This document shows positions 18,165 to 19,386 of a stretch of DNA of 64,000 nt, in pieces (within the stretch, counting starts at the first letter, position 1; every line of letters starts with the position of its first letter). Under the pieces are notes generated by a model, which searched no databases, was not told the origin of the DNA, and worked only from the letters and a program-made list of their open reading frames with translations. Source of the DNA: Candidatus Bathyarchaeota archaeon (lineage in GTDB: Archaea; Thermoproteota; Bathyarchaeia; 40CM-2-53-6); assembly GCA_963733055.1 (NCBI GenBank), contig CAVTBR010000003.1, positions 1 through 64,000 on the forward strand, read 5' to 3'. The translations under genes were made by a program, and so were the position numbers.

Positions 18165-18291
18165 CCCAACACCAGTCCGACTTCTGAGTTAGTTTCATCT
18201 GTAGATTATTTACGAATATTGTATAGCTGAAACTTCGGGAAAGGAAGCACGGAGGATTTGTTGGTGCGGCCGCCGGGATTCGGACCCGGGT

Positions 18292-18314
18292 TCCCTCGCT
18301 GCCGGAGGGCAGCT
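18292..18314 (-). other. tRNA intron 3 (23 nt, position 45/46)
   Basis: Helix CCUC/GAGG, bulges AA^A and GA^A, intron stem GCUGCC/GGCAGC. Confidence 0.9.
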
Positions 18315-18347
18315 TTGAGGCTTGGGAAGCCCCCGTCATAGACCAGG

Positions 18348-18370
18348 CAGTCCTCCCCTTGATCGGGGAT
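18348..18370 (-). other. tRNA intron 2 (23 nt, position 15/16)
   Basis: Helix GUCC/GGAC, bulges AG^A and UG^C, intron stem UCCCC/GGGGA. Confidence 0.9.
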
Positions 18371-18377
18371 CTGGACC

Positions 18378-18425
18378 ACGGCTAAGCGGAGCATCGAGCG
18401 GCTCTCGCACTCGGAGGCCAGCCCA
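18378..18425 (-). other. tRNA intron 1 (48 nt, position 8/9)
   Basis: BHB central helix GGCU/AGCC with bulges GU^U and GU^G. Confidence 0.8.
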
Positions 18426-18455
18426 ACAGCCGCAAGCTCCCGAATCCATCAACCA

Positions 18456-18462
18456 AATAAAA
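18456..18462 (-). promoter_or_regulatory. putative TATA box of the tRNA-Gly gene
   Basis: TTTTATT on the minus strand about 25 nt upstream of the mature 5' end. Confidence 0.5.
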
Positions 18463-18539: not shown

Positions 18540-18899
18540 TCACTTTTCGCTCGGAGACTCTTCGAGTTCCTCAAGAAACTCTTCGAAAATCATTCGAATT
18601 TTCAAGGGCATGTCGGGTAACTTGTTCCGTGTTGCCTCTGCGAAATATGCAATCATGCTTTCAGGAGAGGTGGATGTGACTTCAAAGGTGCTGGGCTCGG
18701 TTTTAGGCGTGACTTCCACGACCACGATATGAATACTATCCGCGATATTCGCTGTGACTTTAGCGGCGGCAAGACTTTTAGTTTCTCTTTCAATTTCGTT
18801 CGCCCAATGCTGAAGGTCTTGCAAAGAGAGACTTTTCGCCTCTTTTTCCAGCTCATCTGCTAGGTCGTCAAAATCGTCAGCATCTATGCTGATTGGCAT
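18540..18899 (-). CDS. hypothetical acidic protein
   Basis: ORF 18540..18953; likely start at MPISIDADD; no recognised family. Confidence 0.55.
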   Translation of the reverse strand: MPISIDADDFDDLADELEKEAKSLSLQDLQHWANEIERETKSLAAAKVTANIADSIHIVVVEVTPKTEPSTFEVTSTSPESMIAYFAEATRNKLPDMPLKIRMIFEEFLEELEESPSEK

Positions 18900-18936
18900 T
18901 ATAACCTGCCTCTGCCAATGTTCATATGGCTCAGAG

Positions 18937-19386
18937 CTAAGGGAGCAAGTCATCCTCAGCCTCGATTGTCACATGCTTTTCCTGTTTGTCCAGACGAACA
19001 ATCAGTTCTATGTCGTTTGTGTCATTGAGTTGGTGTCCTTCAATATCCCTTCTGCAGACTGGTTTGTTATCTGTCGTCCACCCGTAGGCCCACAAATTCC
19101 AATGCCTATCTTTTCTGTCGTGGAAAACTGCTAGAGATACTCGCGCGTGCTGACTTTCATTTGCAATGGTTAGGGCACCACTACCCATTACTGGATAACG
19201 AGAAGGCATAGATGCCCTGTCGGATTGTGGATATGGGAAACCTGGAGAATAGGCAATTGCGGCGCAACGAGTCAACTCAGCGTCTGGGGTTAGACCGACA
19301 AAAGACTTCCATTCGGATCTGTTCATATCTATCACCCAGTTCACATCCGTAGAGTTAATGCGCCACCCAATTTTAGCGTCTGCCAT
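18937..19386 (-). CDS. hypothetical protein
   Basis: 149-aa ATG ORF with protein-like composition. Confidence 0.55.
   Translation of the reverse strand: MADAKIGWRINSTDVNWVIDMNRSEWKSFVGLTPDAELTRCAAIAYSPGFPYPQSDRASMPSRYPVMGSGALTIANESQHARVSLAVFHDRKDRHWNLWAYGWTTDNKPVCRRDIEGHQLNDTNDIELIVRLDKQEKHVTIEAEDDLLP

Follow-up and report, generated by a model that had tools for sequence, protein, structure and literature searches.

A tRNA-Gly(CCC) gene with three short BHB introns, the first most likely at acceptor position 3/4, in a soil and peat genus of Bathyarchaeia

The tRNA genes of the Thermoproteales contain up to three introns according to the available text of two published accounts, which places the non-canonical ones at positions 20/21, 22/23, 25/26, 29/30, 30/31, 45/46, 53/54, 56/57 and 59/60 (PMC4090602, PMC8450103). 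Introns at 3/4 are mentioned in the consulted part of one of these papers as occurring 'in an extreme case', and the same excerpt describes a relaxed HBh′ form of the splicing motif for non-canonical introns (PMC4090602). The strict hBHBh′ form, as defined in the section consulted of a further paper, has at least two Watson–Crick pairs in both outer helices (PMC7714728). In some Asgard archaea nearly every tRNA gene is interrupted and D-arm introns are common, as stated in the portion seen of a recent report (10.64898/2026.10.13.758758). Split and permuted archaeal tRNAs have GC-rich leaders that form a BHB with the partner piece, in the available text of Chan et al. 2011 (PMC3218864). A search of a limited literature collection returned no paper on tRNA introns in Bathyarchaeia.

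Our study examined a tRNA gene in a 64-kb window (the whole stretch of DNA that was analysed) from a genome of this class, which comprises 2.88 Mb in 3 contigs with a GC content of 50.5 %. The nearest named records for a neighbouring protein were Bathyarchaeia MAGs from peat and soil; one DNA run holding part of the stretch was a soil metagenome, and none of the runs on record as holding it was of RNA type. The gene occupies a gap of 375 nt between a gene of the prolyl-oligopeptidase family on one side and small ORFs on the other, and the wider neighbours are housekeeping genes (MFS transporter, aEF-2, FEN1, DNA ligase and diphthamide synthase). A 137-aa ORF that adjoins the tRNA (window 18540–18953, minus strand) gave sub-threshold matches to HK97-gp10-like and tail-completion families, with a Pfam score of 21.0 against a cut-off of 21.4 and a match to PHROG 5 at an E value of 1.8e-4. 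A provirus beside the tRNA was considered and rejected, as the HK97-gp10-like match is sub-threshold and the neighbours are housekeeping rather than viral.

The original prediction proposed that three BHB introns, none of them at 37/38, interrupt a tRNA-Gly(CCC) gene, and this was upheld, as were the sequence strings quoted for it, all of which were located on the minus strand between positions 18433 and 18262 of the window. Read in that direction, the proposed pieces follow one another as 8, 48, 7, 23, 33, 23 and 30 nt, the last of which ends in CCA. Neither ARAGORN nor Rfam called a tRNA in the unspliced 64-kb window, and the gene was absent both from the 20 genome matches of RF00005 and from its window matches (the gathering score was not reached), as would be expected for a gene with three introns still in place. 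When the three intervening pieces were cut out by coordinates, ARAGORN called a tRNA-Gly(CCC) of the predicted 78 nt, with a normal cloverleaf and an encoded CCA, and intron removal gave the same identity in the window and in 17 relatives (18/18). The cloverleaf had also been predicted to be blocked before splicing, and this is supported, as the proposed splicing motifs occupy acceptor, D-stem and anticodon-stem bases.

Our interpretation, to which we assign a probability of about 0.75 on the basis of sequence comparison and folding models, is that the locus encodes a functional Bathyarchaeia tRNA-Gly(CCC) with a 25-nt leader and introns at 3/4, 15/16 and 45/46. The first intron is most likely one of 23 nt at 3/4, which would give an exon 1 of 3 nt and an exon 2 of 12 nt. 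The parts of the gene would then be as follows.

18455..18462, minus strand: TATA-like box (TTTTATTT), putative archaeal promoter element, 21 nt upstream of 18433
18409..18433, minus strand: 25-nt 5′ segment, probably leader rather than exon
18406..18408, minus strand: probable exon 1, GCG, tRNA positions 1–3, invariant in 18/18 genome sequences
18383..18405, minus strand: probable intron 1, 23 nt, position 3/4, central helix AGUG/CGCU, bulges CG^A and UA^G, inner helix GAGC/GCUC
18371..18382, minus strand: exon 2, 12 nt, positions 4–15, invariant in 19/19 genome loci
18348..18370, minus strand: intron 2, 23 nt, position 15/16, central helix GUCC/GGAC, bulges AG^A and UG^C
18315..18347, minus strand: exon 3, 33 nt, positions 16–45, anticodon CCC
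18292..18314, minus strand: intron 3, 23 nt, position 45/46, central helix CCUC/GAGG, bulges AA^A and GA^A, 6-bp inner hairpin
18262..18291, minus strand: exon 4, 30 nt, positions 46–76, with the T arm (loop UCCGAAU), the 3′ acceptor strand and the encoded CCA

The TATA-like box is kept at equal spacing in the orthologues. The GCG of exon 1, which contributes to BHB 1 the last nucleotide of the helix and the first two of the bulge, is also invariant in 27/27 metagenome contigs among the matches listed. The T loop (18275–18281, minus strand) departs from the almost universal U55 (pseudouridine) by a C, which is common to this tRNA-Gly(CCC) and to tRNA-Gly(UCC) (G000 C3:367674–367769); the orthologues have C at position 55 in 16 of 18 cases and U in two.

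The DNA search covered 41 genomes, namely the window's own, 22 of the same genus and 18 more distant ones, and full-length homologous loci were found in 18 of the 22 same-genus genomes. The three interruptions are common to all 19 loci. Later counts (n=18) refer to the window and 17 relatives, with L019 (G003:C15, ~1440–1516) left out, as unrelated sequence takes the place of its promoter, its leader, its exon 1 and the 5′ half of intron 1. A pattern scan of metagenomes yielded at least 80 loci, of which five were too short upstream, six were duplicates and 69 were judged; because the orthologues are kin and some of these contigs probably repeat genome species, the counts are not independent. 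Among the matches listed, the 69 judged contigs comprised 40 with an uninterrupted 5′ end, in which a contiguous 5′ acceptor strand, equal to that of the sister-genus gene L020, is joined to exon 2, 27 with the 3/4 motif and 2 that were unrelated.

Several of the relatives merit description in their own right. The replacement sequence in L019 carries a second partial copy of exon 2, a detached 5′ piece was not found in genome G003 (78 % complete), and the locus could be either a dead gene or a split tRNA. Locus L018 (G001:C20) has CC for UU at positions 32–33, by which the universal U33 is lost. The sister-genus gene L020 (G023:C11, 1397–1534) has introns at 15/16 and in the anticodon loop region, and none at 3/4 or 45/46; this different set indicates that introns turned over between neighbouring genera. 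In the class-level relatives tRNA-Gly(CCC) is mostly compact, with ARAGORN calling 23 of 25 loci, most of them without a reported intron.

The introns at 15/16 and 45/46 were retained from the original prediction. The central helix at 15/16 (GUCC/GGAC) is fully paired in 18/18 sequences and that at 45/46 (CCUC/GAGG) in 15/18, the other three having three of the four pairs, while the inner hairpins of both introns vary in sequence and length and keep their pairing through compensatory changes. On these grounds the BHBs at 15/16 and 45/46 exceed chance. The loops vary freely among orthologues. With all three motifs pooled, 95.1 % of cells pair, compared to 37–56 % when the partner is slid by 1–3 columns. 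An intron is also present at 15/16 in the sister-genus gene L020 and in the order-level relatives L026 and L027; judged from these sequences, it is the older one. A 4-bp central helix with two 3-nt bulges on opposite strands was found for all three introns (with three of the four pairs in 3/18 sequences at 45/46), and on the exon side the helix h has 1 bp in each of them in 18/18. None of the three introns has the strict hBHBh′ form, with both outer helices of at least 2 bp, and all three are of the relaxed HBh′ form. BLAST searches for copies of the three introns elsewhere in the genome gave self matches only.

The position of the first intron is less simply read. BHB-like structures, defined as a 4-bp helix with an outer helix of at least 2 bp, were enumerated, and for the window's precursor alone 22 candidates turned up within its first ~65 nt, a consequence of an acceptor sequence that is rich in GC and close to a palindrome. 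Extending the enumeration over the orthologues revealed a second BHB inside the 48-nt segment that had been proposed as the intron. This motif cuts after the GCG at 18408–18406 and directly before 18382, and releases 23 nt. The junction falls between acceptor nucleotides 3 and 4, and leader nucleotides and G1 take part in the helix. Its central helix pairs AGUG with CGCU, for which relatives have CACU or CAUU, and its inner helix is GAG(C)/(G)CUC. The bulges read CG^A and UA^G, the latter being AG^G in most relatives. An endonuclease cuts a BHB after the second bulge nucleotide, and this rule agrees with the more conserved product at 45/46.

Comparative evidence for the 3/4 motif was found at several levels. 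All four central pairs are present with an h′ of 2–5 bp in 18/18 genome sequences, and with an h′ of 2–6 bp in 27/27 contigs among the matches listed. One pair of the central helix appears as U-A (12), U.G (4) or C-G (1), the eighteenth row being a misaligned sequence, and another, with the contigs included, forms a series of G-C, G.U and A-U; both series are compensatory. The intron is 18–24 nt long in the 18 genome sequences, similar to introns 2 and 3. The first 15 nt of the resulting product are identical in 18/18 and match the 5′ end of the sister-genus gene L020, which is uninterrupted there, with exon 2 joined directly to GCG. Forcing the 3/4 motif places the fold 2.4–11.7 kcal/mol above the MFE in the 18 sequences, and it is cheaper than the motif at 8/9 in 18/18, with a mean difference of 12.6 kcal/mol, where all folding energies are nearest-neighbour estimates at 37 °C. 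A variant with a 3/4–5/6 intron that uses the far-upstream GCG as exon 1 would yield a product equal to that of the 3/4 model, and it was rejected because no BHB could be built for it by hand in any register.

The original prediction had instead placed the first intron at 8/9, with an 8-nt exon 1 (18433–18426), a 48-nt intron removed through GGCU/AGCC and a 7-nt exon 2, which would give a leaderless tRNA with one acceptor G.U. We regard this as improbable: the comparative, motif and folding evidence favours the 3/4 motif, and the supposed exon 1 is most likely the start of the 25-nt leader. The 8/9 motif does have all four central pairs in 18/18 genome sequences, with an h of 2, and in 26/27 contigs among the matches listed, and its helix (GGYY/RGCC) includes one compensatory change (U-A in 3 versus C-G in 13). 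It has its 3′ region in common with the 3/4 motif, however, and as one of many BHB-like candidates in this sequence it is not distinctive. The window itself shows the motif at its best, with a U8 and a 4-bp h′. Across the genus h′ is nevertheless 0 in 14/18 genomes and in 22/27 contigs among the matches listed, and two of the 3′ 'bulge' nucleotides can, as read from the sequence, pair with G1 and C2 and abolish the bulge. Single contigs also break the pattern, as L202 has a C opposite an A within the helix and L157 has an A at 'position 7' opposite C66.

The upstream piece does not behave as tRNA positions 1–8, with a U8, seven acceptor pairs and exon-like conservation. All 23 intronless tRNA-Gly(CCC) genes of class relatives have U at position 8, as do the other tRNA genes of this genome, whereas the 8/9 model puts A there in 6/18 genome sequences, and of the 27 contigs among the matches listed 17 have U at 'position 8', 9 have A and 1 has C. 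The piece occurs as four different 8-mers in 18 species and always forms one G.U pair with the 3′ strand, which is invariant. A fold forced into the 8/9 motif lies 11.4–24.4 kcal/mol above the MFE, because the upstream piece prefers the 3′ acceptor strand. The model also requires an intron twice the length of the other two, and it leaves unexplained both the covariation and an invariant block in the middle of the 'intron' (AGUGCG, GAG ... CUC, CRYU) whose conservation equals that of exons; the last five nucleotides of the supposed 48-nt intron are likewise invariant and, together with GCG, equal the uninterrupted 5′ end of the sister genus. ARAGORN accepts the products of both models in 18/18, including that of the 8/9 model, and so does not discriminate between them. 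The claim of an intron at 8/9 is most likely an artefact of the near-palindromic acceptor sequence.

Promoter geometry speaks for 8/9. The TATA box of other tRNA genes here lies 20–28 nt from the mature G1, and in this gene it lies 21 nt from 18433, so that the 8/9 piece begins at the expected transcription start, in the place that G1 has in other tRNA genes. The upstream piece thus sits at the former place of the ancestral 5′ end. The 8/9 reading would keep a normal geometry, whereas under the 3/4 reading this gene alone would carry a long (25-nt) leader. Two further points count against the 3/4 reading, namely its exon-side helix of only 1 bp and a conserved block in the leader that it does not explain. 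The leader is conserved at GCGGYYG and at GGCUGG; the GGCUGG block (18409–18422, minus strand) is invariant or nearly so in the 18 genomes and the 27 contigs among the matches listed, and none of the pairing partners tested for it is maintained. A helix between the leader and the anticodon stem, seen in RNAalifold and in the MFE fold, is not maintained in the orthologues, and a C/D-box or K-turn for the conserved leader block was rejected by eye.

A reading in which both motifs are used is very improbable in our view. It proposes that the precursor undergoes either splicing at 3/4 with RNase P trimming or a cut of the 8/9 type, whose helix can re-form with G3–C6 after 3/4 splicing, and that two tRNA-Gly(CCC) isodecoders result, differing at 5/6 and 8, at least where U8 is kept. 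Both central helices are conserved, the window's two products each pass ARAGORN, and the upstream piece pairs with the 3′ acceptor strand in 18/18 genomes and in 26/27 contigs among the matches listed. The objections from energy and h′ nevertheless apply as they do for 8/9, and the variants with A8 or C8 show that tRNA-like selection does not act on the second product across the genus. It is hardly credible that the gene is decaying or silent, with its motifs left over and GGG read by tRNA-Gly(UCC), since exons 2–4 hardly change across 18 species, in contrast to the freely varying intron loops, the promoter is kept and all three BHBs are maintained with compensatory changes, against which stand the existence of tRNA-Gly(UCC) (C3:367674–367769), the relative (L019) without leader and exon 1, and the one (L018) with CC at 32–33.

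Returning to the preferred reading, with introns at 3/4, 15/16 and 45/46, maturation may be pictured as follows. Transcription would proceed from the TATA box at 18462–18455 and start at ~18433, giving a precursor of 25 nt leader, 3 nt exon, 23 nt intron, 12 nt exon, 23 nt intron, 33 nt exon, 23 nt intron and 30 nt exon with CCA. Each intron, with the 4 exon nucleotides that precede its 5′ splice site, would fold into a relaxed BHB with an intron hairpin and 1 bp on the exon side, and the three motifs would form as separate local hairpins. A two-subunit splicing endonuclease would cut after the second nucleotide of each bulge, and RtcB would join the exons. The genome encodes two single-domain EndA proteins of 185 and 188 aa (tRNA_int_endo, 83.9 and 54.7 bits), found in the regions C3:228623–228877 and C1:1338756–1338995, which probably form an (alpha-beta)2 enzyme, as well as RtcB (577 bits) and an archaeal RNase P RNA (176 bits).

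The ordered processing that had been predicted for this gene gives way to a different order. An order among the three introns is not needed, because their BHBs occupy separate nucleotides and do not overlap, and that part of the argument falls. What persists is an order between splicing and trimming, in which intron 1 would leave before RNase P trims the leader, because BHB 1 draws on G1 and on leader nucleotides −3 to −1 for its central helix. As the motifs occupy acceptor nucleotides 1–4, D-stem nucleotides 10–13 and anticodon-stem nucleotides 40–43, the cloverleaf would form only after all three introns are removed.

The last 3 nt of the leader sit in the central helix of BHB 1, and its first 7–8 nt (18433–18426) mimic the 5′ acceptor strand; one contig among the matches listed has a perfect mimic. 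The predicted MFE fold has the mimic paired to the 3′ acceptor strand in all 18 sequences, over 5–7 of 7 bp. The first 7 nt may thereby hold the 3′ acceptor strand, so that G1–G4 stay in the splicing motif. On these models the mimic may be left over from the ancestral 5′ end, may have been selected as a placeholder, or both. As a placeholder, a mimic with one G.U would be displaced by the perfect spliced 5′ strand, and the order endonuclease, ligase, RNase P would be enforced. We consider it unlikely that the precursor contains a cis-acting maturation switch, whether a placeholder mimic enforcing processing order or two competing motifs giving two 5′ ends; no switch of either type in a tRNA precursor was described in the literature examined.

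Interrupted tRNA genes are the rule in this genome. The Rfam tRNA model found 13 tRNAs above threshold in the whole genome. Our tally of genes with CCA, an intact T arm and a 5′ strand that could be located came to 28, of which one was a spurious 32-nt match; 25 of the remaining 27 carry 15–105 extra nucleotides before the T arm and 2 are compact there, which indicates an intron-rich lineage. From the sequences compared, the abundance of introns seems confined to the family or order of Bathyarchaeia to which the genome belongs. Examples of interrupted genes in G000 are C1:64673–64765 and C3:546744–546926. Four further ends in G000 consist of a T arm, acceptor strand and CCA (C1:1423416, C2:407608, C3:631607 and C3:527886), and for these no matching 5′ acceptor strand was found within 450 nt and no convincing acceptor-split BHB was seen; they may belong to tRNA genes that are split, permuted or hidden in another way. 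ARAGORN with introns allowed reported several 'tRNAs' in G000 with introns of 1857–2476 nt and odd anticodons, which look like false joins.

Our study indicates that a palindromic acceptor sequence easily gives a false splice motif, and that intron positions near tRNA ends need comparative evidence beyond a single BHB. The soil and peat Bathyarchaeia genus would join the few lineages in which almost every tRNA gene is interrupted. The acceptor-stem intron, a recent and genus-specific gain that came together with a long leader, would be useful for studying how archaeal tRNA introns arrive, and if the leader mimic is functional, it would be a simple case of RNA-encoded processing order.

Genes with three introns, the HBh′ form and introns at 45/46 and 3/4 are already known from the Thermoproteales, as far as the available text of the cited papers goes. 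The present locus resembles the genes described there in having several short BHB/HBh′ introns per gene with no canonical intron needed, in its probable 3/4 position in the acceptor stem, in its 45/46 position and in its predicted two-subunit endonuclease. Unlike those hyperthermophiles, the host belongs to a Bathyarchaeia genus of mesophilic habitats (peat and soil), and unlike the transposed intron families in the portions consulted for that order, the introns here are without sequence relatives elsewhere in the genome. With the Asgard case, as far as the part of that report consulted describes it, the locus and its genome share the interruption of nearly every tRNA gene, frequent D-arm introns, a median intron of ~22–23 nt, the failure of standard finders and recent gains in single lineages (10.64898/2026.10.13.758758), although the phylum is different. 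It is also similar to the split and permuted tRNAs in that leader nucleotides enter the splicing motif and in the long distance from promoter to G1, which is a tell-tale of such genes in the text available (PMC3218864). In contrast to those genes, all pieces here are colinear and would lie in one transcript, pairing of the leader is in cis, and its contribution to the central helix is limited to 3 nucleotides.
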